DNA of 62,967 bases, the filler included, from Gonapodya sp. JEL0774 (taxonomy: Eukaryota), in NCBI GenBank assembly GCA_027604505.1. It is 13 parts of 13 records of this genome, joined end to end, with 100 filler letters (N's around TTAATTAATTAA, not from the genome) between each part and the next. Parts side by side here need not be neighbours in the genome. Positions count along the whole stretch, not along the records: positions 9,767 to 14,546 come from JADIIX010000862.1; 12 more parts are not named here. One strand, 5' to 3'. A program made the translations under genes and the position numbers. This document shows positions 4,884-53,336 of this stretch, in pieces; position 1 is the first letter of the stretch; the number at the start of each line of letters is the position of its first letter. Under the pieces are notes generated by a model. It saw nothing but the letters and a program-made list of their open reading frames with translations, made no database searches and was not told where the DNA came from.

Positions 4884-7800
4884 AGCTCGCATGACCCCCT
4901 TCACTTCTTAAAATCAAAAGAATGAAGCCCCGCTTCGCTTTCGCTCAGCGAAACTTCGTCACACATGGCAGCTAGCGGGCGTGACAGTTCTCCAGCACCT
5001 CACCGTATCAAATTAAAATTGCCAAGCCCAGACACCTTCACTGGAGCTTGCTGAGAAACAGCAGACACTTGGATTTTTCAGCTTCAGAACTATTTCGCTG
5101 CAGCACATGTCGCACCAGAAGATCAAGTCACCTATGCTATTGCCCTCCTCCATGACCGCACAGCAAACTGATGGCGTAATTACATGAACCTTGTAACGGC
5201 GTCAATGGCACCACCAATCATTTATTTGGATGACTTCGCTATGCACTTTCTAAACTACTTCAAGCCACCTAACGCAAAACAAACTGCTCGTGACTGTCTA
5301 CGCTCTCTCCGCCAGACCACCTCAGTGGCAGCTTATTCAGCAGTATTTGGCACTATACTCCTCGAGATACCTGACATGGGATTGGCAGATCAGCAGGATC
5401 CATTCACTCATGGGCTCAAGGATTTACCTCGTAGGGAGTGCTGCATTTGCCGTCCAACCACCCTCGCAGAGGCATTTCAGATTGCTGACTCCGTCAACAC
5501 TGCATCATTTGAGAGCAACTTTCGAGGCAACCAACGCCGCACTCACTGGAGTACCCCACCACAAAGTACCGCGACTGCTATGGACGTTGACACAGCAGAG
5601 ATCCCAGATCCATTGGACACCCTCGATACCAACAACGTCAACACCAACCGTCAGCAGCTTACAAAACTCACCGATACAGAACGTGAACAACTCCGTCAAA
5701 TTGGTGCATGTTTCCGTTGCCGTCAGCAGGGTCACCTTGCCCGGGATTGTCCTACATCAAAGCAACAGGGGAATGGCCAGCCTCAGTAGATAGTCACAGA
5801 GTAGCTGCTGAGGCAATAAATAATGTACCTTTGAAATCATTGACTCCGCCCCTTGAATGTCCCTTAATACCACTGAAAACACCAAACCCAGTGAAACCCA
5901 AGAACCCCGAGAACCTTGAGACACCACCGAAACTGATGAACCTCAAAGGCAACCACAGAATCCCCATGAACCCCCTGAACGTTGGAACACTTACCTTGGA
6001 TCCATTGCAATCACGTCAACGTCGCCTTATCGTCTTCCGCGGAAATTTCCTCGGACACCCTGCCAGATTCCTCCTTGATCCTGGATCCTCAGCAAACCTG
6101 GTCTCAACAAAGTTTGTAAATCGCCACAGTCTACCTGCGACAAAGATCACCAAACCATTGAAAACTGTTTCATATGATGGGACACTCGGCACCACTGACC
6201 TTGCAATGCTCCGAGCACCATACACTCTTGACAACACTATCCACTTGCAAGACGACTTCTACGCTATCCACATCGCAGAGTACAATGTGATCCTCGGAAT
6301 GCCGTGGATGGAAGATTACGAAGAAAACATTGTTCAGTACCAATGGCGCAACAAGGAACTCCTCTTCAAACAGGATGGACTCACCTATGCACTCCAAGGA
6401 ACTGGCAGTACCCTCCCAGAAACCCTTGTCTCTGCCATAGACTTCGCCAAGGAAACCCAACACTTGAACCACGGTCACGAAATTGGGTTAATATTTGTGA
6501 CCGACGTGAACACAGAACCTTCTGATCCGATCGATCCACAACTTAAAACATTGCTCACGGAATTCTCCGACGTCATTCCAGAGGACTTACCAGCAAAACT
6601 CCCTCCTCAACAATCCATCGACCATCGCATCGAGTTGATTCCTGGTGCTGTACCACCCTTTCGACCTCTCCGACAAATGACACCAGCAGAATGGGACAAG
6701 TTGAACAAACAACTGGAATACCTACTAGAACGGGGATATGTGAGACCTTCGAAATCTCCTTACGGCACACCTATCCTATTTGTACGGAAGAAAGACTGAA
6801 CCATGAGGATGTGTGTCGACTACTGCGCTTTGAACTCACTTACTATCAAAAACAAGTATCCTCTACCCCGGATTGAAGAGCTCCTTGACCAACTCCGTGG
6901 CACAGCTGCCTTTTCGAAACTTACCTTACGCATGGGCTATCACCAAATTTGTATCCCAGAAAATGACATACCTAAAACAGCATTCCGAACACCGTTTGGT
7001 CACTACAAATTCACAGTTATGACATTTGGATTCACCAACGCACCTGTGACATTCCAAACCCTCATGAACAATATATTTCGCCCACACTTATGTCAATGGG
7101 TCGTGGTATACCTGGACGACATTTTAATCTTCAGTTGCAGCACCACAGAGCACTTGACTCACCTTTGAGAAGCCCTGGAGCTCCTTCGACAAAAGAAACT
7201 CTACACCAAACTGTCCAAATGCGAGTTCCTGAAAACAGAAGTGGAATACTTGGAGCATATTGTCAGCAAATGGGAGGTGCGAATGGATCCAAGGAAAGTT
7301 GATGCGATATGTACCTGGGAACCTCGGACCAACATCTGTGGAGTCTGAGCATTCATTGGCCTGGCAAGCTACTACCAAAAATTCATCAAAAACTTTGCGA
7401 GAATAACGAATCCACTGACCTACCTCCTGCGAAACAATATCCCCCTCAATTGGACTGACAATGTAAATACCACGTTCGAGATCCTGGAAATGGCAGTCAC
7501 ATCTGCACCAGTTCTCCAACTCCCTGATCCCATACTTCCTTACACCATCTCCACAGATGCCAGCCAGTATGACATGGGAGCAGTCCTCAGCCAGACAATA
7601 AACGATGAAACTCACCCCGTAGCTTCATCTCCTGCCAAGAGCAAGTACCCTACCCACGAGCAGGAACTCCTTGCCATAGTGGATTCCCTCAAACATTGGT
7701 GGCACTATGTCCTTGGAACACCCTTAACCATTTTCACTGATCACAACTCCATCAAATGGATCAACTCGCAGCCTCACCTTTCACCACAGCAAGCCCATTG

Positions 7801-9468
7801 GTCCTTAGCCTTGCAAGAATATGACTTTGAAATCAAACATCACCCTGGGAAAGAAAACATTGTTGCTGATGCCCTGTCTCGCAAATCCAATGTTAATGCA
7901 ATCATTTCAGTGGACACCAACCAAGCTTACCTCGATTGCCTCCAGCACAATAACAGCAGGCACCCAATACCACCCAATTGTGCAATTGGCACCAACGGTC
8001 TGTTATACAAGAATGGACGGATTGTTGTTCCTGACAATCCTCAGTTACGTCAAGATATTCTCCACAACCTCCACGACTCCCCTGTTGCTGCTCACCTTGG
8101 ACGCAACAAAACCCTTGACCTCATCCAGCGCACGTATTGGTGGGAAGAGATGGCACGTGATGTTTCAGAATATGTCTCGAGATGTGATTCCTGCCAGCGA
8201 AACAATGAACAGAACCACCAGCCACTACCAATGCCTACCAAAAGATGGGAATCCTTATCCATGGACTTTATCACAGGGCTTCCGAAGACTCAGCGAGGTT
8301 TTGACGCGATCCTCGTCATCCTTTTGCTGTCTGTCAAAACGTGCGCACTTCATTCCAACACGTACCACTGTAACAGCACCTCAAGTTGCTCACCTTTTTC
8401 TTGACAACGTTGTTAAGCATCACGGACTCCCTAAAAGCATTGTTTCAGACTGCGACCCATGTTTCACAAGCAACTTCTGGACAGCACTCACCAAGTCCCT
8501 TGGCATTCAACCCCTCATGTCAACAGCGTTTCACCCTCAGACAGATGGACAAACAGAGCGTATGAATTGGACCCTGGAAGAAATGCTTTGGCATTACGTC
8601 TCTGACACCCAGAAAGATTGGGAACCTCACCTGCCTACTGTTGAGATTGCGTACAACAACGCCAAGCAAACATCCACCTCCCAAACCCCTTTCTACATTG
8701 ATACTGGCCGACATCTTCGACTCCCACACGACTTCGTGATTCAAAGGAAACGGACTTTTGTTCGCGCAACTGAACAATTTGTCACGCACCTTGCAGACAT
8801 CACGCGACAAACATAGGAAGCACTCACCAGGGCGCAGAAACGACAAGAAGACTATGCAAACCAGCAAGGACACCCTGATGAGTTCCACAAAGGCGACTAC
8901 ATCCTGTTGAAGGCAAAGAATTATTCGTCACTCTACAAACTTGGTCCTCGATTCCTCGGGCCCTTCCCCATCATCAACAAACACGCGCCTCTCATGTACA
9001 AAATTGCGCTTCCTCCAGGTACTCGATTTCATCCAGTCTTCCATATTTCTCAACTCAAACGTTACTGATGTCCCCCTCTGACTGTGGCATCAGTCCCACC
9101 CCTGGGCAGCGCAACATTACCTGAACAATTTGGACGTTGAAGCAATTCTCCGTCAACTGGTGCAAAAACGTGGCAGCTTAAATCAAGTAGAGTACTTGGT
9201 CAAATGGTGCAGAAAACCGGACTACGATGCAACTTGGGAACCATCAACGACCCTTAGAGACGCCAGTGAAGCCATTGAGCAGTTCAAATCGAGTTGATTC
9301 AAAAGGTGGGTAGAATGTAATGGTGAAACGCTTGTGAAGGGGTTGGAACATCATGGGACAAATCTTGCGTAATCAGTTACAGACTATATAAAAGCATAGA
9401 AATGTATCTGGGGGCAATCTCGATCAATAACAGAAAATCTACGCTCTTGACCCGACCTTCCTTCTACA
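4884..9468 (+). mobile_element. Degenerate Ty3/Gypsy chromovirus LTR retrotransposon (gag-CCHC, protease, RT, RNase H, integrase, chromodomain, PPT, 3' LTR)
   Basis: Gag CFRCRQQGHLARDC; protease [27 protein letters not shown]; RNase H TDASQY; integrase HLGRNKT..CDSCQ, TAFHPQTDGQTER; chromodomain VEYLVKW..DATWEP (about 9135-9297). Several stops and frameshifts. Confidence 0.95.
9316..9468 (+). repeat. Putative 3' LTR of the Gypsy element
   Basis: Follows purine tract AAAAGGTGGGTAGAA (9301-9315); begins TGTA and ends TACA; internal TATATAAAA. No 5' LTR in the contig to compare. Confidence 0.65.
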
Positions 9469-9666: not shown

Positions 9667-9953
9667 NNNNNNNNNNNNNNNNNNNNNNNNNNNNNNNNNN
9701 NNNNNNNNNNTTAATTAATTAANNNNNNNNNNNNNNNNNNNNNNNNNNNNNNNNNNNNNNNNNNNNGAACCGTTACACCACGCTTTTGTGATTCACAGAA
9801 TTGAGTTTCTTTCCGATCACCCACCGCTATAGTCACTTATTCATGCGCTGACGGACCCCATGAGTAGAGATTCAACTGCACGTCATACATACACTGGAAC
9901 CAAGTTGAACCGAGCGCTTGTGAATAATGCACATTGGCTGGTTGACACCAAAA

Positions 9954-11441
9954 TTATGTGTACATCCTCTTCTCTTTAGCGGAAAAGGTGTAAAGGCTCT
10001 TTTCCTTGACGTAAAAGTCCTTGCCCATCTTGTTGCAGCTCTCAGCCAACTCCGACAGGACTCGGTGCACCCACCTACTCCACTCCGGCGATCGATCACC
10101 ATCACACTTGATCACGCTATAGGCGATCTCATACCTTTGTGCCGACATGCTTGAGAAAAACCATTCCCATCCCGCGAGGTGCATAGCGAATTCACGGTTC
10201 GAAGGCTCGACGTCCACTCTTGCAGCGGCGGAGGGTCCAGCTGATGCCTGAGGATCGAGTCCGGCCGCCCAAATATTAAACGTGGCAGAGTCAAATTGAA
10301 TCTCCACATCGACGGTCTCCAATGCTGGAAACAGACCCACGAACCAATCCAGCAACTGACAGAAGTGGTGACGGGCCACTGTAAAGTCATTCGCAAAGCT
10401 GCATGGTGCGATTCCGAGACGTCGAACGGACGTTATGGGTCTTTGAGATTCGGGCACGAGTCTGTTTCCGGGAAAGACGTGGGAACGATGTGGTACGAGG
10501 CCGACGAGAGGAAACCCCACGAGATGGACAACGTTCGAAAGGTAGGTGAGTACCATGAGTCCTTCATCCATAAGGTGCCATTGCTGGAATATCCCGGCAC
10601 ACGAGACACATGAGTGAATGATTTTCGGCAAGATGAGGGTGGTGATGTGTGGAAGGCGTTGATTGACTCGTACCAGGTCGGGATCATTGTCGTGAGATAG
10701 GCAAAGAGGTAGGTCTGGTGCCTCGGAAAAATCAAGGACTGTTAGATTAGGGAATAGCTTTGCCAAGTTTGTCGGTTCGGGATTCAGCATGTGCATGGCC
10801 GTCTTCAGAATCTCCACAGACGGTAAGGTCACCAAAGGGCACAAATCGATCCACGACTTGATGTCGTTGCGAAACGGGCAATTGATGCATCGGGGTAGAA
10901 GAGCGCTACATAGCAGCTGCGCTCTTTGAGGGAGTGTACACCAACTCAACGTGTCACCGTCGGACGCAGAGAGTTCGATCGTGTCCGCGACCAGCAAGAG
11001 TCTGTCACGAGATACCCCAAGAATGTTCGAAATCATCGATACAAAGTCTTTTGGCGAAAATACCTCGGCAATCCGGGCGATGTCGGCTGTGATCTCCATG
11101 TGCGCAGCAGCGTAAAACACAACCTTGGATCTCCCTTTCCCATCACCAGTCTTCCTTTCCACCCGACAAAAGCTGCTCATCACACGTTTCCGCGTGATAG
11201 TTTTGTATTTGATGACTGGCTGAAGGAAGTCCAACAAGACGGTGACTCGCCCACGATTGTGCGCGAATGCTGCGCGCCAGGCGTGATTCCATGCGCGGGA
11301 CACGGTTGGCACCGATGTGAAGAACGATGACGGAGTTAGGAGCTCGAAGATGGCAACGAGTGCTTCAGGGGGGAGCGATGGCATTGTTGTCGAGCCTTTG
11401 ACTATGGAAACATCTCTGTCAGATTGCTTTGCTGAGGACAC
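9954..11441 (-). CDS. F-box-like protein with LRR-like C-terminus (apparently intronless)
   Basis: 495-aa ORF; N-terminal PSLPPEALVAIFELL..VPTVSRAW; LFPNLTVLDFS, LPHITTLIL and FPALETVDV repeats. Confidence 0.7.
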   Translation of the reverse strand: MSSAKQSDRDVSIVKGSTTMPSLPPEALVAIFELLTPSSFFTSVPTVSRAWNHAWRAAFAHNRGRVTVLLDFLQPVIKYKTITRKRVMSSFCRVERKTGDGKGRSKVVFYAAAHMEITADIARIAEVFSPKDFVSMISNILGVSRDRLLLVADTIELSASDGDTLSWCTLPQRAQLLCSALLPRCINCPFRNDIKSWIDLCPLVTLPSVEILKTAMHMLNPEPTNLAKLFPNLTVLDFSEAPDLPLCLSHDNDPDLVRVNQRLPHITTLILPKIIHSCVSCAGIFQQWHLMDEGLMVLTYLSNVVHLVGFPLVGLVPHRSHVFPGNRLVPESQRPITSVRRLGIAPCSFANDFTVARHHFCQLLDWFVGLFPALETVDVEIQFDSATFNIWAAGLDPQASAGPSAAARVDVEPSNREFAMHLAGWEWFFSSMSAQRYEIAYSVIKCDGDRSPEWSRWVHRVLSELAESCNKMGKDFYVKEKSLYTFSAKEKRMYT

Positions 11442-11814
11442 GGCTGTCCGAATGGCAACACAGCACCTTGGACTTTCGGTCTCAAAGAAAATTGTTCTGG
11501 TAGAAACGATGTAAGAAGAAAGCTCAGTGAGGATGATATGAGTTCGTCTTGGTGTTCATTAGTCGACGGAAGGTCAACAGCCGGTAGGTAAACATTTTCC
11601 TCCACCACAGTACATACGTACAAGTGCGCTGGCAATCACTCACTTTTAAGGCATAAACGCAGGGGCTACGTGATTCGCACGACAGTATCAGATTAAATGT
11701 GATATATTGGCACTCCGACCCCAACACGCTGTCCATGACATCCATCAACCATCCCAACTCAACTCCTTCCAACAATAGTACTACAAAAAGCCAGTTTTCC
11801 AGCTCCGTTGAGTA

Positions 11815-11915
11815 CACTGCCTTCTCAGAAACCGCGTGAGCCCTCCTTGTAGAGGAGGATGCCACCGAAGAAGCGGCCGCTTTCGCACTCAATGCGGTCT
11901 CGTCATCCGTCGTAA
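11815..11915 (-). promoter_or_regulatory. SECIS element candidate in the 3'UTR of the SELENOH-like gene
   Basis: Minus strand AUGAC-GAGACCGC-AUUGAG..AAA..CUCA-C-GCGGUUUC-UGAG: AUGA (11906-11903) and UGAG (11827-11824) core flanking a complementary helix II. Confidence 0.75.
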
Positions 11916-12002
11916 GTGGTGTTGAGTAGTGCTAGCTGAGATTCCCGAGCAGAATGGCGGGGATTACCGCGCCAGGCATGGCCGATTCGAAGCGATTTGT
12001 GA

Positions 12003-13008
12003 TTAGGCGACGGCCGCAGTAATATCGGCAATGAGACTAGAGCGGTCGGGCCACTTGAGGCTACGAGGTGGGCCTTTGGTGACACCAGACCTGAATTTTT
12101 GGAGAATGGAGATTCGAGTAAGTGCAACGAGAAAGGTGAATTTCATTCTCTCTAATCAGAGAAACCAATAGCTTACCAAACGAGAGTTTCTGGATCATCA
12201 AAAGTAAAGAGGCGGTTGTATAGGCGACGTGTCATGAATTGATAATCAGATGTGGTCGTATGAGAACTTTTTGTGTAGTGGTTCATCCTCGAGCGCGGTC
12301 ATTTACCCTTGCCTCCTACTTTCACAGTGAAATCGAAAGCCCCCTTTCGAGGTTTCTCCTTGTTGACAGTTATAACAATCCCAGGGAACGAAGACTCCAG
12401 GGGCTGGCAAAAATAAAGCGAGACCCAGGGCGCCAAGGAGAGTTGTTGAAGAGTCGAGGGAAAGAACATAAAGATAAGCAGAGTAGCACGTTTATCAATG
12501 AAAACAAAAAGCCTACCTCCCGGAGCTTGTTCAACTGGGACGCATACGTGCGTCAGCTCTTGCTGTTCCATTTCACAACGGTGGAGATCAAATCAGATCG
12601 AGACGTGAGATCGGGGGACGAACGCCAGAGTCACAGCGGAGGGGAAATACACGTCAGTAATTTTTACCGATAAATGCAGTCGCTTAGTGAAAGCTGTGTT
12701 GCCGATCCCAGTGGCAACCAGTCCTGACAAGAAGGGTGCACTCACCAGATTTCAGCGTACAGCTCAAATGCCTTGTCCGAAATCACCGCCAATGACTCGC
12801 TTTCTACTTCTTCTTTCTTCACCTTCTTTGTCGCAGGTGTCTTCTTCGGAGCCTGCACCACGGTGGTTGCTGGTTCCTCCTTCACGTCTTCGTCCGCCTC
12901 GGCGGCCCGTTTGCGCCCCTTTGCGGTAGGCTGATTCGATGGTCCGTCCTGGGACTCTTGTTTAATGGCTGTTGCGGCAGCCTTAGAAGCGGCTCGCTTT
13001 GGTGGCAT
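12003..13008 (-). CDS. SELENOH: Selenoprotein H-like Rdx-family protein with in-frame Sec-UGA (exons 13008-12746, 12562-12517, 12403-12307, 12189-12177, 12090-12003; 168 aa)
   Basis: All four introns are GT-AG and phases close (507 nt). Translation: basic N-terminus ..YAEIC-KS-U-RTYASQLNKLREPLESSFPGIVITVNKEKPRKGAFDFTVKVGGKETLVWSGVTKGPPRSLKWPD.., colinear with recalled SELENOH motifs (CxxU, KPRRGSFEV, LWTGIKKGPPRKLKFP). UGA at 12555-12553. Confidence 0.9.
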
Positions 13009-13326
13009 TTTGATTGGATGGGGGATGCAGCGGATCAGTGAAACCGAGAATATCCAAACCGTTATGTCCAACCAGACAACTGTACTACATTTCCAAGTTC
13101 GTGCCCTTTTCGGCTATCTGACGAGGCGATATTGCAAAGTCTTGAGGGATGGCGGTCGATAACCTTCCCTCGCTCGCGCCTTGTATCTACGCTTATTTAC
13201 AAAGGTCGCAACAACCTTAGTACATCTGACAGTTAGTCTCCTGCTGACGAGCAAAGCTGAGTTCCTTTGGAAGTGCAGGGTTCAGGTGCACCCACCAGAC
13301 CACACGAACAACCATAGTAAAGTGAA

Positions 13327-14546
13327 ATGTCTGCGACTACCGACGTGCGAACGACCATTCCCAGAGCTGGTGGCTATTTCATGGATGAAAGAAGGCTGCT
13401 GGACGTTCACGTGAAGGAGCTGAATGGCTGTGACTCACAAGGAGTTTCCGAAACCGGTTGGGCATCAATGACGACTGCAGTTTCAGGCGGAAGTGGACAA
13501 CGGCGGCCGAAAAGTGCGAAAGGAAAGCAAAGAACGGAGAGCAGCAAGGAGCTTCCTCCGCCTGATGGCTCAGCTTTCAATGAAACTTTGACCGGCACAA
13601 GTCTGTTGGCGTCATCCGAACCAGAAGCCAAACGGCATTTGAAGAATGCTCCGGACATTAGAGGGAAGGTTCGACAACGAGACGCGAAAAGAAAATCGCC
13701 GCGACAGTCTGGACCGGAGCAGGAGACCGTTGGCGAACGGACAATGTCACCTTCTTTGACACGAAGCATTATTGAGTTAGGAACTCCTCAAATGGGACCG
13801 CCACCGCTCCGGCGATCGTCTGTTCTCCCTCAAGTGCGCCCGCCCACGCCTGCTCAGATCGTAGCCCAGGCACGGGCATCCCTCGCACACCCAACGAGAC
13901 CGTTCACCCCACAGGTTATGACATCCGTTTCTGCTTTTCCTATCTCCCAAAAAAGATCGAACTCCCGTACTTCCACTTTGCACCTACTCACTGATTCGTT
14001 GTATGATGACTCCGTGGCTACACCTTCAAATCAGAGGTCTCTACGCCCGTCCTCACCACACACACTGGTGGCTACTCGCAAGCCTGTACCCCCACCTCGA
14101 CTACAACCAATCATTCCATCCGCATCCAGACCAACAACACCTCTCCACGAGCCTCCGCTTGAGTCTTCGTCGATGTTTGTGAGGGTGCAGGATGACGTGG
14201 TTTTTGAGCCAGCAACACCAACAAACGACGACCACGTTTCAAAGGTGAGATACAAGAATAGTGTGAAGGGTTATGTCTGTCTACGAGCAATCCGGGACCA
14301 TGGATTCCCCGTTTGTCCAGACTCTGTGGTGAAACGTTCGCAATATTCCTCATAACTGACAGTTCTCACTCTCTCGATACCCTTCCCAAGCCTCAAGTAT
14401 ACCAACATTCAAATATAGTCGCTCACACTACCCTTACTAAGCTTCTCAATGAATTGCTAAGCACCTCGCCACCTTCATCCACCTGTCTCTCGGCCCTCCA
14501 GTCATACCTCGACCAAAATCCCGAAAGCGAATGGGAAAGTGTGATG
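13327..14546 (+). CDS. Armadillo-repeat protein ARMC2-like, N-terminal part (3' truncated; start uncertain)
   Basis: TPAQIVAQARASLAHPTRPFTPQ resembles the recalled ARMC2 N-terminal motif TSAEIISEAR..RPFTPQ. ARM repeats would lie beyond the contig end. Confidence 0.55.
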
Positions 14547-33983: not shown

Positions 33984-35049
33984 NNNNNNNNNNNNNNNNN
34001 NNNNNNNNNNNNNNNNNNNNNNNNNNNTTAATTAATTAANNNNNNNNNNNNNNNNNNNNNNNNNNNNNNNNNNNNNNNNNNNNTCCATCTCGGTCGCCTG
34101 CCCTTCTTTGGTCCTCTTGCAATACTTTTGGCTCGTGAGGATGGTACGGGCCGTGGGGTCCAGGTTTGGGGCGGGGGCCAAGGAAGGTGGGAAGGGAGGT
34201 GCGACGGAGAGGAAGGAGCAGAATGGGACGGCGAACGGGAACGGAGTGGGGAATGGGAAGGTGGGGCACAGGGAGACCGACCAGGGCGCAGAGCGGGGGA
34301 AGGAAGAGTGACTCGCACGGGCCACGGTGGAGGGGCGGACGCGGACCGAGTGACTTTTTCCCCATCAAGGTGGACTGCAGGGTAGGCGGATCGGCACACG
34401 GGGTCAGAGTCACCACTATGCGGCAGGTTCCAGCGGTTGAGGTTTGGAGAGGACGGACAGAGTGTGTGGGTGTGTCAGGCACCGTGACGGTTGTTGGTAC
34501 GGATGGAGACAGAGGGTGATTTGAATGTGGTAGAGTTCCATGTCGGGAGGTGGAAGGGTCAGGGGTTGGTGTGGTGTATTGTGGGTTGCGGTCCACGGCT
34601 GAGATTACTTTCTATTTTGTTGTTTACATTTACGTAATTCTTACGCGGTGGTATAACGGGTAGTGCTGTCGAAGTGCTGATTTCTTTTCTCACGCGCGTT
34701 TAGTTGTAGTGATCGGAGTGCACAGTGCCCATATTCCCAAATCAAAACCACTTTGATTTCATTTACCACGTGATCTTCTTTTGTCCTCACGTCTGCTACT
34801 GGAAAGTTTTTTCATTGCCCACGGATCCTCGTCGTGTGCACCCGGTGGGCCTTGGCAATACAGCTTTTGTTCTGTACCCGCAGGTGAAGGGTGAAGCAGA
34901 CACTCGTTTGAGGCTTTTGATTTTGCACAGTTATAGAGCCCCCTCTTGTCATTGAGGGCACTTTCTTCTCCTCCCTGCATATCTTGCTTCCATTCTGTTT
35001 TGGTCTCGGGCAGCTGTCTGGCTCGAACGTGATGTGATGTCATCGCTCC

Positions 35050-38000
35050 CACCACATTGGAACTATGAATTGTGTGATGTCGTTACATAAGGAGCTGGTG
35101 AAACATTCCACCCAGCATTGTTTATGAGGATGTAGCCGTGTCAATAACACTGGTATTATGATGTTCCACTCACAAATTACAGCAGATCACACAATCTGTG
35201 GACTTGGTTGTCACTTGTCAGCAACTCATGACACAGTCTTTCATGAATACCTCAGGTTTCAAATGGTCCTGGTCTAGATCAGCTCGGTACCTTTTTTTTT
35301 TTTTTTNNNNNNNNNNCACTATGGTTCTGGTCAGGCCCGCCAGTGAGACAGTGTGGCTGACTCATGACAGGTGCAAGAACTTTGAAAGGGTCGCCATATG
35401 ATCAGAATTGCCAAGTACAGCACTCAATAAATAAATGAGTAGTCATGAACATTGTCTCCCCTGTTTTCACTGTCTAAATGAACAGAAAACTGACCTCTTT
35501 CACACACCTTGAATGTTCCAGATATTGTCCCATGCACTCATATCTGGATCTATAACGTTTGCATTGCCATCAGGATTTGTACCAGAGAACTGTCCAGGGC
35601 TCCTTGTGGTGTGTGCTTGTTGGCTGTGGCAAGAACAGCTCCTTTTAAGAATAGTAATACTGAAGCAGAGTAAGTCGCCAATTCAGATGTACACTGAGAG
35701 CAGTGGCCCCTTGTCAGAGATTTGATTTGCATTTAAAATTTTTGCAGATTGCCTTAGAGAAGAGTTCAATCTCTGTTCTCAACAAAGCTTGTACAATTAC
35801 AATTCACCCAACTCTTTCCCACACAGCTTGATCTTCATTGGTGCTCACATCTCAAGTGGGTATGTGGATATTTGTTGTCATTGCAGAGTGTTCCTTGTCA
35901 TTACAGCCATGGGAAATGGTAATGAACAGGACACTTAGTACAATACACAGTGCTGTATCATTGTCTCATGATTGCTGACCATCTGCTGGGAGGTAGTGGA
36001 CACCTGTTCCAGGTTTGGTTTCAGAATGTTCTCAATTTGCACCTCTTATAGAGGATACTCTGTCCTAGACAATGCATGTCTGCAACCATCACAGCTCCAG
36101 CTTGGAAATGTGTTGAATATCCAGGTTATGACATTGGAACTCTCCCCATTTTGAAGCTGTTACGTAAGATGCTGGAGAGACATTTGTGCTACATCTTGAT
36201 GGGGAAATAGCGGTTTCAAATATGGTGTTGGGGCATGTCACCATTTACAAATACAAATCACCCAATCCACACAGTCAACTGCTGACAATCCATGACAACA
36301 TCTTTCACAGACCACTTGGCTTTAAAATGGCTAAAGTGCAGATGTAATACTTTGTGGTGCGCTCTGGTTCTGTCAGATTCACAGAGGGAGAACATGGAAG
36401 GCCAGAAGGTGAAATATATGTATGTCACAAAAGCCAAAATTGCTAAGTCCTTCACATGCTGGGCAATGAGGACCTATCACCAGACCTCTTTGCTCCTCAC
36501 TAATTGATGAAGTTTCTGGATTTAATACTCAAACACTACCCATATTACATCCAGCTTTTTTTGGTTTGTCCTTGTATTAATATCAGGAACTTTTGTGATG
36601 CCATCAGATTGAGCAGAGGGTTTCTCTTCATTTGTGCCTGTGTCAAGAATGGATCCAAGGATTATTGATCCATAGAGTGCACCTGCTGATAATGATCAAT
36701 ATGAGGTGCAACATCAGAGTCAGGAGTCCAAGCAGCAGTCCATGCAGCTTAGTGGTCTTAAAACAGTAGCAGAACACTATTGTGGAGGAGACTCTGCTTT
36801 GCTACTGTCAGTGGCTATTGCTTGGTTGCAACAACCTCTGTCCCACCGCATCAGAATTACTTTCACATACTGCTTGATATTTGTTTGGTGCTCAAGTCAG
36901 CATTTGGAATTTTTGTGTTTCCATCAGAACTCAGTTTCAGTCTTCCTTGTTGTCTGTGCTAGTTGGTCTCTGTGGGTGTCACACTGCATGTATGTTGCCA
37001 AACATCTACACCAGCGGTGCAGACCCCCCATCCAAGGCTTTGCAGTCTCAGGACACTATGCAATGGTGTTGTTTCCTCCCTGCAATGCATGTTGTGCCTC
37101 TGGCTTGAAGTTGTCAACTGCATGTGCCATCATTGGTCTGACTTATCAGCACTCTTGCTTTTGTGAAGGCATTTCTCAGACTCTCTTCACAGATCTCATG
37201 TGAGTTCTGAGCACCTTCAATGTTTATCAACTCTTCCCTGGTATAATGTGCTGTTGTCAGTCATGAATGTATGATCAAACTGCCATGATATATGCTCTGG
37301 TGCCTTTTTACATTTCTCTTTGTTTGCTTGCAGTAGGTTTTCACTTTTGCATGCCAAAACAGGTTGCAGAAGGATGTATATGCAGCTGTACATGTAAAGT
37401 ACCAACCACATGTCCAGCATCCAAACTCTTTCACATGTTATGGGTTGTACTGCACAGATTACTGTTCCTGTTCTTTTTACCTCATTGTTGCAGTTTGCTA
37501 GAGTTCTTTCTTCCTTGTTATCTGTGCCCATTGGTTTCTGTGGCAATAATCTTTGTTGTATCCCTCTTTGAATGAATGCTGCAGATCATCTATGCCAGGC
37601 CTGAATAGTGCCAGGGGGGGGGGGGGGGGGGGGGGCCGGGCGGGCGCCCGGGGCGCGGGGGCCGGGCGGGGGGGCGGGGGGGGGGAGTNNNNNNNNNNGC
37701 CAGGCCTGAATATTGCAATCCCCCCCCCCCCCCCCCCTCCCATCCAAGTTTTGGTCTCAGGACACTATCTAGTGGCTTTTACAAGGGGTTCTCTGCTCTC
37801 CACAATGCACATTTCACGACCTCCATCTCTTTTGTCTCTGGCTTGACCTTGTGACATGGTTAGTCCCACCACTATTATAGATTGGACCTCCCACTTTTGT
37901 CACACCTAACTTGCTGTGTGTTGGTCACAGTCACCATGCTGCAGATGGATCTATCTTTTCAATTACACAGGCATCCAAATTCCTTCATGGGTGACAGACT

Positions 38001-38760
38001 TACTGTTATGGCTTAGAATACTTCTATTTTTGTTTACAGAGTGGTTAAACAGGTAACTACAGCTGTTGTTTACTACTTGGTGAAGCGTTCTTGGATCTTG
38101 GGGTGCTGAGTGGATGGAGTTGATGGTTCATGGCAACCTGTGCTATCACTCCTGCAAACTACTTCTGCCACTTAATGCTCAACTTTTTGTTGCTCCTCAT
38201 GTCTCATATGGGTATGTTATATTTTTTTTACATTGCTAAGAGTTCCTCCTTGTATACACCTGCATGTGGGACACAGCAATGACTGGAAAGAGTTCCTTGA
38301 GTGACGTGTGAGCAACCTGATTGCTGACCATCTGCACAGGGTGTAATGGACAAATTTTCGCATTTGGCAATGTCATTGAGTTGCTCTGATATATGAGCAC
38401 CCTGTAACAATCATAAGTGCATATTCAAACTGTCAGATGTTCACACAGTGCTGACAGCTCGATAGTACATGTTTTTGGGAATTCTGACACTCAGTTCCCA
38501 ATGAATCAAAGTGGAAGGTGATCAAGATGATAGCTTCTTTGCAAAGGCTGTAGTTAGCTGGTGCAATGGGAGTTCATCTGATGTCATACAAGTGACTGAG
38601 TTTACGTTTCAGACATGTATAATTTCCCTCTACTTAGGCAATTGGTTTGGTGCCACTTTTTTCACTTTTTGGGCCTCCTAGTATCACCAGTCATTGTATG
38701 ATTACATTGTGGGAACCAAAAGTAGGACTAGCCACCAATGACTTGCTTGTCATTGTTGGA
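35050..38760 (-). mobile_element. Heavily decayed, CpG-depleted repeat region of unassigned class
   Basis: CpG is nearly absent with TG/CA excess, there are no long ORFs, and there are internal diverged duplications; sharp contrast with CpG-rich flanks. Confidence 0.5.
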
Positions 38761-38930
38761 TGTCGCAGCACTGCGACTCGGAGCACTGCGGTCGGTGCCC
38801 AATCCAACATACCGGCTGAGTGCGCAGTAGNNNNNNNNNNNNNNNNNNNNNNNNNNNNNNNNNNNNNNNNNNNNTTAATTAATTAANNNNNNNNNNNNNN
38901 NNNNNNNNNNNNNNNNNNNNNNNNNNNNNN

Positions 38931-48612: not shown

Positions 48613-51600
48613 CGCTGCAGAAAAGGTATGCTCAAACCCACAGAGTTTGGACAGAGCAATCATGACTTTGCTGGTGAAGTTGCTACCACGATCCGTGTGC
48701 AGGCGCATGAAAACACCATGACGGCAGATCCAATGGCGGAAGATGGCCTCTGCAATAATCGTTGCTGATTGATCTGGTATGGGGACACCTTCAAGCCACC
48801 AATTGGCATGGTCGATCATGGTCAAAGCATAGACATTCTTTCGGGCTGTCATGGGGAATGGCCCAATGATGTCTGCTGAAACAACTTCTCCAGGCAAACA
48901 TTCATCAGTGGCAAATGCCTGTTGTTGGCCCTGGTTAGAAGGTTTGGACAGCTTGCGGCTCTGGCAAGTCACACAAGCTGCCACCCAGCGACGAACATCA
49001 CGTGACATGCCTGGCCAAAAGAAACGCTCGCGAAGAGATTCCCACATCCTTGGAGTGCCAGCATGCGCAGCTAGAGAGTCCTCATGGTAAGCTCTCAGGA
49101 ATTCCTCTCTTTGTGAGGAACACAAATGAGGTCCACTTTGATCCAGGTGTTACCACGAAAGATCTCACTGTGCTGGACTAAGATACCAGAAGGGTTGATT
49201 GAATGCAGGGCAGCTTGCAAAAGGAGCCTTTTGGAAGCACCTGTTGGAGGTGTACCTGCCGACAAATACTTAATAAGGGGCCCATAGGCAGGATCTGCCT
49301 GTTGGCCAGCAACAAACTGGAGCAGGAACTCGTGTGTGTCCAAGCTCACAGTAAGGAGTTCAATCTGGCTTGGAGAGGGTGCAGCATAAGAACTGGTGAG
49401 GACTTCAATGCTGCTTGGTGAGAATGTGGCATAAGGAACTCAGTGGTTGGTCCATTATGTCATGATTGTCTGTAATAGCCAGCGAGGCCAAGGAACGAGT
49501 ATACTCCATCAAGACTAGTAGGGACAGGGAAGGTGCGAATAGCCCCTGTCTTTGCAGGGTCCATCTTGATTTTGCCTGTGTTTGTGACAACATGCCCGAG
49601 GTAGGCAGTCTCGTGTTGGCACAGAGTGCACTTCTTTGCACGAAGGCGAAGCCCAGCATTCCGAATGCACACCATCATCTCAGTGATGTCCTGTATGTGC
49701 TTCTCAAAGGATGGTGGAAAGACGATGATGTCGTCCATGTAAACAATGTAGGAGATCCATTTAATGCCAGCAAGAACGGCATCCATGAGATGTTGGAAGG
49801 TTGCAGGTGCATTTTTTAATCCGAATGGCATACGGATAAATTCCTACAGGCCCTTGGGGGTAATAAACGCTGTCTTTGGGATGTGGTCTTCATGTATCTT
49901 GATGTTCCAATATCCCCATGTAACGTCAAAGGAAGAGATGTAGGATGCATTCTGCAGTGAGTTCAGGGCATCATCAATACGGGGAAGGGGGTACTGGTCT
50001 TTCTTCGTGATCTTGTTCAGCTTGCGATAATCAATGCAGAAGCGGAAATTGCCATCTTTCTTTGGTACCAGGACCACAGGTGCAGCCCAAGGGCTATTAG
50101 AAGATCGGATCACTTCTTGATCCAGCATTTCCTTCACAGCTGCCGACATCTCAGGTCGTTCCCTGAAAGCAGCTTGGTGTGGTGGGACCGCAATAGGGGG
50201 GTGATCACCAGTATCAATACGGTGAGTGACACCAGGAACGGTACCTGTTTTCTCTTTGTCAGAGAAGACATCTGAAAAGTGCTCATGAAGTGTACGTGAG
50301 AGGAAACTTTGTTCTTGCACTGTCAGGTTGGCAGTTTTTGACAAATCAAGATCAGGTGTGGGCTTGGCTGGTTGATATCACACATTGGGTCCTCCTTTTC
50401 AATGAGTTTCCTGATTTCAGCAGGATCTTTGGGAACAGGATTACCCTTTGGTGGTAGGTTCTTTTCAGTGTCAGCCGATTGCTTAGTTGCAGGCTTCTCA
50501 GATAAATCAAGGGTCATGAGATTGAAATCGGAATTTGTGTGGGGTTCACAAGTAGCAATTGGAGTTCCCTTAAGGAGGTGTAGAGGTGCCCCTGTCATGT
50601 TGGCGACAAATACTTTGGACTTCCCCAGGGTCATTTCTGGTGTTCCATGTGCAGCGAGGGCACCAAGCTTAATGGATGTAATAGGATGGGGCTTCACAAA
50701 AACTGTGCCTGTCCACCTTCTTCTGGTGTTGATGTCACGGACATTGCACATTACGCCATGATAGCAGTCAATGGTAATATCTTCGTCAAGGATGAGATCA
50801 ATGTCTCTTCGACGGACTTTGCCTGTCTCAATGCGGACTCGGGTCTTTGTGCCAAGTTTGTCGTTATCACCTTTGCAGGCAATCCAACCCTCATCATAGT
50901 CAATTATGGCACGCCATAGGCGGAGAAAGTCAACACCAAGTAGAATAGGATGAGGCAGGTGCTCAATAACAGTGAGTCGAATGGGTCTTCTGACACCAGC
51001 GACTGTCACTGGGAGCAGGACCCAACCAAGTGGGGCAGTGATAGCACCATCACCAACAGTGATGGGTTGCATATTCCATGGCTCTAGGGGCATCATGGAG
51101 AAGTGTTGACGGTAGAAGTCACCACTTATGGCCGATAGGCCAGCACCTGAATCTTGGATGATATCCATTTCAGGGAGGGTACCAATAGAACCACGCATTG
51201 TTGCAGCAATCCACACAGCAGCATAATCTGGTGCCTTGCCAGAGGCGTGAAGCTATACTAACATTCTGGTAATCTCTTTGTATGACTGTGAGTAATCGAC
51301 CCGACGCTTTCTTGGAGGAACAGGGAATGCCGCATGCGGTATATTGTCATTAGCAAGGACAATAAGCTTAGGTGACAGGACTGGAGAGACAAAGTAGAAC
51401 AGCGTGTGTGAGCTTGCTGTGAAAAGAGCCACATTGGAAAAGGAACCATTGCAGCCACAGTCCAGTGGAGGGTTAATTACGCCCTGCACCAGGCAGTGAC
51501 TGCCTCAAGGCAATTCCCACAACAACATGTGCACTGATGTTGAGCCAAGGGTGTGAACCACTTAACAGTCATACAACCCAAGGGCTACTGACCAGTAAAG

Positions 51601-53336
51601 CTCTCGAACGAGGTGTAGTTCTGCGCCTACAGCACTCGGCAGGCGAGCGTTGCCGCCAGGGCCATGTCATTGGATTCTTGCCATCACATTCTCTGTAACG
51701 CAAGTATGAGCCCGGAGGCGGTGCCACTGACTCCAGGGTGATCCTACACACCCTAGCCGGGTCTTTGGGCCAGCCAACCATCAGGCAATAGGGGACTCCC
51801 TCCACCCAATATTGCGCACGACAAGCATCTTGGCGGTTTCACTCCACAACCAAAGGCTGCACCAACGTGAGCCAACCGTCAGGCAATAGGGGACTCCCTC
51901 GACCCAACATTGCACACAAGAGCATCTCGGCGGTTTCACTCCGCAGTCGAAGGCCGACCAATCCTGACTCTACGCATGGGTGAGCGTTGCCACCGCAGAG
52001 GTTGGACTCCATACTGACGTTATTCTGTTTTCCGGTTTATTTCCAATGTGTTACAGGTTAGCTAGTCAGTTCTCTAATTCTCATCATCGTAATTGTCATT
52101 AACAAAGGCATCGTTGTCATCGTAATCATCGTCGTTCCACATCTCATCACCAAAAGCTTCGTCTGGTGTTTCTCCCATTGTAAGTACGTTTGCACATCCG
52201 CAATACGCTGGACCACCACGCCCGCCATCACGGTTTGTGTCTTGGAAAGTGACATGGCGGCTGGGACGACTGGAAGGTGGTTGAGAGTTTCGGCGTTGAA
52301 CCTCGTTCTCAACAGCAATGCGTGCATTCTCTGGCAGGACATAGTTGTGTCCAGCAACAAAGTTAGGTGGCAATTGATTGAAGTAGCGGACAAACAGGTG
52401 CACGTTTGCCACTGTCACCACAGGGGCTTTTGAGCATATTCTTGCCCAGTGGCCTTGCTCAAAACGATTGGAGCAGACTTGGTTTGGTACAATGGAGTTG
52501 GTTTCTCCTAATGGTGGCACAGCAGCAGGTGCTGTCATGGCCAAAAGCGGCTGCTGCTGTGGGGCTGGCTGCCTCTCAGTAGACCGCTGTGGGTATGGAC
52601 GGTACATCTGGGCTGGGTGGAACATTGTGCCTTGGTAAGCACGAGATGCACTAACTGGGTTCCACCTCCCGCCAGAATACATGCCAGCTGGGGCTGCTGC
52701 AGCTGCTTGCTGTGGTGTCACTACTATAGCCGGTGCCTGCGCAACATTCAGTGATGTGCCAGTGGAGGTGTTCGCAAACTGCCAGTTACCCCAAGTAACT
52801 TTGCGAGTCTGGAAGTCAATTGTGGCCTGGTATAGGGCTTTCAAGGGTGCCTCTTTGGAGTCCAGCTTACCGAGCTCAGTAAAGAGTTCTGGGATTGAAA
52901 GTTGAAAGCCACGGACATAGTGCTGTCTCAATTTCCGGACAACAGTGCATTGGTTGTTGCTCTCCTGGAGCTCTCTATTGATTTGCAGATCAACAGAGTA
53001 CAGTTTGTGTATGAGGCTTTTAAAACGGTTTATGACAGCAGTCGCCCCTTCTTCAGCCTGGGCTGAGAATCCCTCAATCTTGGACCAGCACATGGAGAGA
53101 TTTTGCTGATCATTGCCAGCGGCAGAGAGGATGGCTTGGCGGATGTCAACCCATGACGTCATGGAAGTGAGAAGTCTCTCAATGGCTAAGGCAATTTGTT
53201 GACCTCGAAGGCCAGATCCACGAAGTGCCTCAGCGGCACGCAGGGCGGCAACTTGTGGCGTCTCTTGGTTTGCATGGTAAACATTCTCAGCATGCTGAAC
53301 CCAGGAAGCAACTGGCTCATTCTCCCCCAAGGAGCG
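48613..53336 (-). mobile_element. Second degenerate Ty3/Gypsy retrotransposon (gag, protease, RT, integrase; RNase H apparently deleted)
   Basis: Gag-like 53330-52074; protease IQDSGAG; RT SPWAAPVVLVPKKDG..YPLPRIDD..MPFGLKNAPATF..YMDDII; integrase HAGTPR..CVTCQ, DIIGP, TDRGSNF. Confidence 0.93.
51772..51962. repeat. Tandem duplication of about 98 bp (2 diverged copies) between gag and protease
   Basis: AGCCAACCRTCAGGCAATAGGGGACTCCCTC..AGCATCTYGGCGGTTTCACTCC occurs at about 51772 and 51870. Confidence 0.9.

Follow-up and report, generated by a model that had tools for sequence, protein, structure and literature searches.

The window analyzed here, a stretch of 62,967 nt from Gonapodya sp. JEL0774, is composed of 13 separate contigs of ~4.7 kb ordered by length. 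They are joined by spacers consisting of N44, a 12-nt linker with stops in all frames and another N44, and the parts flanking a spacer are not linked neighbours. The contig at positions 9767-14546 (4,780 bp) carries, on its minus strand, a locus that by its sequence is an intact five-exon gene for SELENOH, of the Rdx family (Table 1). Its exons total 507 nt, i.e., 168 codons followed by TAA, and are separated by four introns of 183, 113, 117 and 86 nt, each starting with GT and ending with CAG. The first-pass annotation had drawn the locus as five GT-AG-bounded exons that splice in phase to 168 codons, and re-deriving the coordinates gave the same structure. It had also claimed that a TGA in the sequence C-K-S-U is the only interruption of the frame, which was borne out by translation of the spliced model: codon 91, immediately after Cys88-Lys-Ser, is TGA, and there is no other internal stop. 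Intron 1 splits the Cys88 codon after its second base (TG/C), and the product of exon 1 has the same sequence as the N-terminal part of the public protein P0003.

Table 1. Positions of the SELENOH gene and of the predicted RNA structures, counted along the whole window.
Feature	Position	Strand	Size	Description
Exon 1	13008-12746	-	263 nt	ATG; N-terminal arm rich in Lys/Ala/Glu; first beta strand; bases 1-2 of the Cys88 codon
Exon 2	12562-12517	-	46 nt	remainder of C-K-S-U; Rdx-domain helix 1; absent from public model
In-frame TGA, codon 91	12555-12553	-		Sec column of SELENOH
Predicted hairpin, 5' arm	12539-12519	-		in exon 2, +16 to +36; pair probabilities 0.83-1.0
Exon 3	12403-12307	-	97 nt	middle of the Rdx domain with KPR-x-GAF; absent from public model
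Predicted hairpin, 3' arm	12401-12380	-		in exon 3, +41 to +62
Exon 4	12189-12177	-	13 nt	micro-exon; brings exons 3 and 5 back in frame
Exon 5	12090-12003	-	88 nt	C-terminal KGPPR-x-LK-W-P motif of SELENOH; TAA at 12005-12003
Candidate non-canonical SECIS	11824-11906	-		AUGAC (11906-11902) and UGAG (11827-11824) around a helix of 8 bp + 5 bp

Translation of other splice forms revealed that stops or a frameshift arise if exon 2 is skipped or intron 1 is retained. On paper, 22 alternative open splice forms lacking the UGA can be constructed, but these were discarded, as the CxxU site is lost in all of them. A sequencing error at the TGA was rejected because homologues have the same TGA.

To place the product in a family, the spliced model was compared with a profile of 40 named SELENOH proteins, which gave 77.6 bits (E 6e-26 for one comparison). 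Together with the presence of the C-terminal motif, this score upholds the earlier description of the product as SELENOH-like. On the same profile, a product terminating at the UGA scored 3.8 bits. When the 52 codons that are hidden in the public gene model (see below) were shuffled 200 times, the maximum was 36.1 bits, as compared with the full score for the real order. The SELENOH C-terminal motif is W-x-G-x-x-KGPPR-x-LK-F-P, and it is present in the gene with Trp replacing Phe; it was then confirmed in 36 of the 44 metagenome loci described below, and its pattern matched the window once against an expectation of 0. The pieces from the individual exons fall side by side, in the right order, on the SELENOH alignment, and identity to homologues is up to 43% across 74 columns, the nearest being the metagenome locus L003 (43%).

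Searches with individual exons yielded little. Exon 3 alone, a piece of 32 aa, matched TIGR02174 (CXXU_selWTH) with E 0.0016 and 18.7 bits, under the cut-off of 34.2, and Pfam Rdx (PF10262) did not match when the exons were scanned singly; in the homologue alignment, 8 of the 13 rows scanned matched PF10262. No match to exon 3 alone was found in a word-indexed search, among 1.84 billion representatives or in the PDB. Single exons were unproductive in such large searches because they are too short. The Atlas returned only Rdx leads at 0.79 (bar 0.9) and none for the C-terminal part, and no solved structures were found with the SELENOH profile. The homologue alignment with the exon pieces retrieved 475 proteins and, among the 120 listed, most of the named ones are labelled selenoprotein H. 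The SELENOH proteins of G. prolifera, Smittium, Zancudomyces and Bifiguratus were not among these 120 of the 475 matches, and therefore there was no close relative for covariation analysis. In a tree of 51 rows, which has poor resolution, with 14 of its 48 branches starred, and was not taken as proof of descent, the protein lies on a long branch (1.21) with L003, L030, L007 and one named fungal homologue, at a support of 83/83 that is not firm.

The predicted protein shares with animal SELENOH (PF10262; TIGR02174) the CxxU site, the KPR-x-x-F and KGPPR-x-LK motifs and a basic N-terminal arm. It differs from it in having a longer arm (168 vs about 122 aa for the whole protein), Trp for Phe in the last motif and an extra intron in the Trp codon, and in lacking a clear AT-hook and a canonical SECIS. 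The arm contains a basic, NLS-like patch at residues 30-37, with K-G-R-K-R-A at 30-35, and a second basic stretch, K-K-V-K-K, at residues 61-65. These patches resemble, without being identical to, the N-terminal RKRK nuclear localisation motif described for SELENOH in the available part of PMC13437758, where an AT-hook is also described for mammalian SELENOH. The P-R-G-R core of an AT-hook was not found in the spliced model; P0025 has one. Several of the SELENOH homologues in the profile comparison are also without an AT-hook, which was not taken as family-defining.

Among the homologues, P0110 (KAL1924714.1, Calcarisporiella thermophila) is a fungal protein scoring 67 bits on the SELENOH profile and annotated with C-S-S-C, i.e., with Cys in the Sec column. 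No conversion of Sec to Cys was seen in fungi in the 2018 preprint (10.1101/314781), and P0110 would be a counter-example if its codon is really TGY.

We then scanned metagenome contigs using only the C-terminal motif, which lies about 50 codons from the UGA, and permitted any stop codon; this gave 44 loci. The SELENOH Trp is present five codons upstream of the motif in 36 of them. In 29 of these 36 loci, a site of the form [ST]-stop-x-[VT]-[YF]-[GKRS] was found upstream, and the stop is TGA in 29/29, many of these loci being redundant, so that they do not represent 29 independent events. A script alignment with 12 contiguous homologues placed the UGA of the window gene in the Sec column (22-31 identical residues over the 70-78 columns starting at the UGA), as did a tool alignment of the separate exon pieces. 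The earlier claim that the UGA belongs to a CxxU motif is therefore confirmed by its alignment with the homologues and by the TGA in all 29 loci.

The metagenome loci also bear on the gene structure, as three of the four intron positions (introns 1-3) recur in homologues. The acceptor of intron 1, located 7 nt before the TGA within the Cys codon, is common to 16 of the 29 loci, and in 12 of the other 13 the Cys codon is unbroken. The donor of intron 2, 12 codons past the UGA, is shared by 5 of the 29 loci (3 distinct genes), in which the frame reopens at the matching residue, and the acceptor of intron 3, 11 nt before the Trp codon, by 12 of the 18 intron-bearing loci. The position of intron 4 was found in none of the homologous loci; exon 4 matches homologous residues and is required for the frame. 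L003/L009/L015, L030, L039 and L001 are unannotated metagenome Sec-SELENOH genes with intron positions of the window gene, L030 having three of them, and possibly belong to further Sec-using fungi or protists. A separate homologue, at L033:417-419, has T-N-S-U in place of C-x-x-U together with a small insertion, and it lacks the resolving Cys.

The public model of the locus is HDU93_009540 (KAJ3331731.1, Gonapodya sp. JEL0774, 116 aa), the single protein retrieved with exon 1 out of 24 candidates. In this model, exon 1 is joined in frame to exon 5 over one 655-nt intron, using two of the splice sites of the five-exon model, and 52 codons including the UGA are removed. It scores lower on the SELENOH profile (33.4 vs 77.6 bits) because the exon 1-exon 5 join hides the UGA. 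The public gene model is a mis-annotation that deletes the active site, and the five-exon structure corrects it. The first-pass annotation had anticipated that standard annotation would probably truncate the gene. It was right about the mis-annotation and wrong about its form: the product does not end at the UGA, which is bridged by the intron instead.

Next, we analyzed the region 3' of the gene for the presence of a SECIS. A candidate element was identified 96 nt past the stop codon, within the range of about 40-420 nt given in the preprint (10.1101/314781). Directly on top of its AUGA:GA core stands a helix of about 11-13 bp, and predicted pair probabilities are 0.91-1.0 at 12 of the first 14 positions. 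The AUGA:GA core is the SBP2-binding feature of SECIS elements according to the available part of PMC8704476. With eukaryotic SECIS elements as described there and in Rfam SECIS_1, the candidate shares the AUGA..GA core, the non-pairing flanks and a 12-13-bp helix above them. Unlike SECIS_1, it has an interior of 74 nt between the cores with three predicted hairpins atop the helix, a weak lower helix, and AA only at +20/21. The unpaired AA(R) 11-14 nt past the core and the short top that define a canonical SECIS were not found in the candidate. The AhpC SECIS of G. prolifera is likewise without apical adenines (10.1101/314781). Hence, the 3' element keeps the AUGA:GA core yet is not a canonical SECIS.

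The homologous loci were used for comparison. Of 31 distinct homologous 3' regions, 21 contain an element with an interior of 32-43 nt, as opposed to 74 nt in the candidate, one has a weak 101-nt match and nine have none. For the 17 of those 21 elements that were carried forward, AA is present at +12 to +14 in 17/17. The first three base pairs of the canonical SECIS of L003 are identical to those of the window element. Rfam detected no SECIS at the candidate element, and SECIS_1 was found in only 2/20 homologous loci. A covariance model (R1) built from the 17 elements, which is AU-rich and has only 7 pairs, found 22 sites in 27 loci and none at the candidate up to E 10.

The rarity of the candidate was estimated by dinucleotide shuffling of the 618 nt that precede the next gene. 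Of 2000 shuffles, 23 had a core of this kind with 8 uninterrupted pairs, a single one had identical core letters and none reached an equal folding energy per base. In a scan for SECIS-like cores whose limits were chosen after the element had been seen, the candidate was the most stable of 6 loose matches in 126 kb (both strands of the window). We consider it somewhat more probable than not that the 3' element is a working SECIS.

A second RNA structure is predicted within the coding sequence. In the spliced mRNA, a 19-pair hairpin extends from +16 to +62, counted from the U of the UGA, and its 4-nt loop is the exon 2/3 junction. The folding energy of the 63 nt starting at the UGA is -31.4 kcal/mol for the spliced form vs -17.0 for the unspliced stretch. 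For these 63 nt, z is -4.7 relative to dinucleotide shuffles (1/2000) and -5.6 relative to synonymous recoding (0/2000), and the hairpin stretch has the lowest z (-5.1) among 32 windows along the mRNA. The predicted hairpin, whose loop joins the two exons, independently supports the exon 2/3 junction.

Among 23 SELENOH homologues, 4 show z <= -2 in the matching stretch, and the window gene ties for the lowest value in that test, at -3.95. The individual pairs of the window hairpin are conserved at chance level in 10 distant homologues (37.9% of cells paired vs 37.2 for shuffled). The register found in L005, offset by 3-4 nt, is shared in part, at 63.5% paired vs 54.9 +/- 2.5, a figure that is inflated by kin sequences and by drawing the structure from one member. 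In alignment A4 (L005, L012, L014, L026 and others), a coding hairpin with partly shared pairs spans +16 to +57, and it is possible that this partly shared hairpin is a family-wide SRE. The window hairpin is like the SREs of SELENON and other selenoprotein mRNAs in being a stable coding stem-loop soon after the Sec UGA, although it is a prediction here; it is unlike them in being split between two exons, with one arm in each, and in having a register 3-4 nt off the partly shared one of the homologues.

Taken together, the in-frame UGA in C-K-S-U is very probably decoded as selenocysteine (Sec). This reading of UGA91 is supported because TGA is found at 29/29 homologous sites even though any stop was permitted. 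No tRNA genes were found within the window. In the mechanism that we propose, UGA91 would be met by the ribosome after splicing, and the AUGA/GA kink-turn core in the 3' region would likely be bound by fungal SBP2 despite a top that is larger than that of a textbook SECIS. As in the established eukaryotic pathway, SBP2 at this core would recruit eEFSec with Sec-tRNA to UGA91. The hairpin 16-62 nt past the UGA, which takes this form only after removal of intron 2, would likely slow termination in an SRE-like manner. Such decoding would yield a thioredoxin-like oxidoreductase of 168 residues with a CxxU site. Judging from animal SELENOH as treated in the available part of PMC13437758, it would probably be directed to the nucleus or nucleolus by its basic N-terminal arm and act as a peroxide/redox enzyme that reduces peroxides or protein disulfides. 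The three junctions 3' of the UGA would leave the mRNA open to decay at low selenium.

More tentatively, and at somewhat below an even chance in our estimate, Gonapodya may have a new form of SECIS, which retains the kink-turn core and helix II but in which the AA-bearing short top has given way to a four-way junction of ~45 nt that acts together with the splice-dependent hairpin behind the UGA. If so, long-top elements would exceed the size limits of SECIS finders, which would explain part of the 'missing' fungal SECIS (11/16 genes in the preprint).

Other readings of the locus have to be weighed against Sec insertion. One is a Sec-independent readthrough, driven by the hairpin and inserting a standard residue, with a 3' structure that is not a working SECIS. 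The very strong hairpin beside the UGA and the lack of a canonical SECIS would agree with it, and a precedent is provided by the strong SRE/HRE structures in the SECIS-less hymenopteran SPS1-UGA genes (available part of PMC4561486). We regard it as very unlikely, given the Sec machinery in the congener G. prolifera (10.1101/314781), the position of the UGA in the catalytic CxxU column and the presence of a kink-turn-type core with a helix at the place expected for a SECIS. The same degenerate SECIS top could instead be that of a decaying element in a gene freshly inactivated in a Sec-losing lineage, where the UGA would now be a stop. Many Sec losses have occurred in fungi (10.1101/314781; available part of PMC9457484), and the branch of the protein in the tree is long. 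However, all eight splice sites, the 13-nt micro-exon and the frame are intact, and both predicted RNA structures are far more stable than the nulls, and recent inactivation appears just as unlikely as such readthrough.

The origin of the contig has also been considered: the gene could be a real selenoprotein gene from another eukaryote present in a fragmented assembly. The contig is short and is assigned to Gonapodya sp. JEL0774 through two proteins, KAJ3305129.1 and KAJ3331731.1; both of these taxon labels derive from one assembly, and the placement of the SELENOH protein in the tree is not firm. The tetranucleotide profile of the contig, however, is in line with that of the remaining ones (r=0.87; two of the 13 score higher), the protein groups, if weakly, with the only named fungal homologue, and a SELENOH fragment has been reported in G. 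prolifera (10.1101/314781), which makes a foreign source highly improbable. Least credible is the view that the gene really encodes the public 116-aa form, with the middle exons left as relics; the in-frame join of that form at two of the splice sites of the five-exon model is set against the deletion of CxxU and most of the Rdx domain, the loss of 44 bits and the homologous intron positions that the skipped exons retain. Decoding of UGA91 as Sec is thus the reading that we prefer.

Sec machinery has been reported in G. prolifera, where it is eukaryotic, and in four other fungi (10.1101/314781, 2018 preprint), in agreement with the first-pass statement that Gonapodya is among the lineages for which Sec use has been reported. 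SelenoH was described in all these Sec-using fungi except G. prolifera, for which only a C-terminal fragment was found, and SECIS elements were detected in 5/16 fungal selenoprotein genes and in none of the remaining 11/16 (10.1101/314781). Reviews, in their available parts, credit nine species to the journal version of this work (Mariotti et al. 2019), and the available part of PMC9457484 gives Sec in 11 early-diverging genomes. Like the Sec-SelenoH genes of Bifiguratus, Capniomyces, Zancudomyces and Smittium (10.1101/314781; Mariotti et al. 2019), with which it was compared by description only, the window gene has TGA in the Sec column, and standard models find no SECIS for it; unlike them, it comes from the monoblepharid branch, for which only the C-terminal fragment of G. 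prolifera had been described, whereas the gene is whole here. It thus closes the gap in SELENOH that had been reported for this branch.

Sec in early-branching fungi and fungal SELENOH are already known; what is new is the element with a SECIS-like core and the hairpin after the UGA. The abstract of the 2019 journal paper on fungal Sec is said to mention other RNA structures in fungal selenoprotein genes, and parts of the RNA-structure findings may already be in print. Our literature search, which covered few subscription journals, found no paper on selenoproteins of the JEL0774 isolate or on long-top SECIS elements. The preprint names as an open question by what means UGA is recoded in Sec-using fungi, given that a SECIS cannot be recognised in most of their genes (10.1101/314781), and the locus offers two exact, mutable RNA candidates for this process. 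It also suggests a search rule for other fungal selenoprotein genes, i.e., the core and helix with a top no longer than about 110 nt. For making selenoproteins in yeast, a recoding cassette native to fungi has been described as attractive (10.1101/314781; also reviews, in their available parts).

Directly downstream of the SELENOH gene, at 9957-11384 on the minus strand, lies a single-exon gene for a 476-aa F-box-like protein (Pfam F-box-like, E 1.4e-4, below the cut-off). A near-copy of 209 aa is present on another contig of JEL0774, and the F-box-like protein shares a 90% cluster with KAJ3305129.1 of this isolate. Elsewhere in the window, ORFs at 5172-8813 (plus strand) and 48613-53336 (minus strand) resemble, by eye, gag/pol pieces of LTR retrotransposons, and, of all the contigs, the one at 34084-38830 is the least typical in its tetranucleotide profile (r 0.49 vs the rest).
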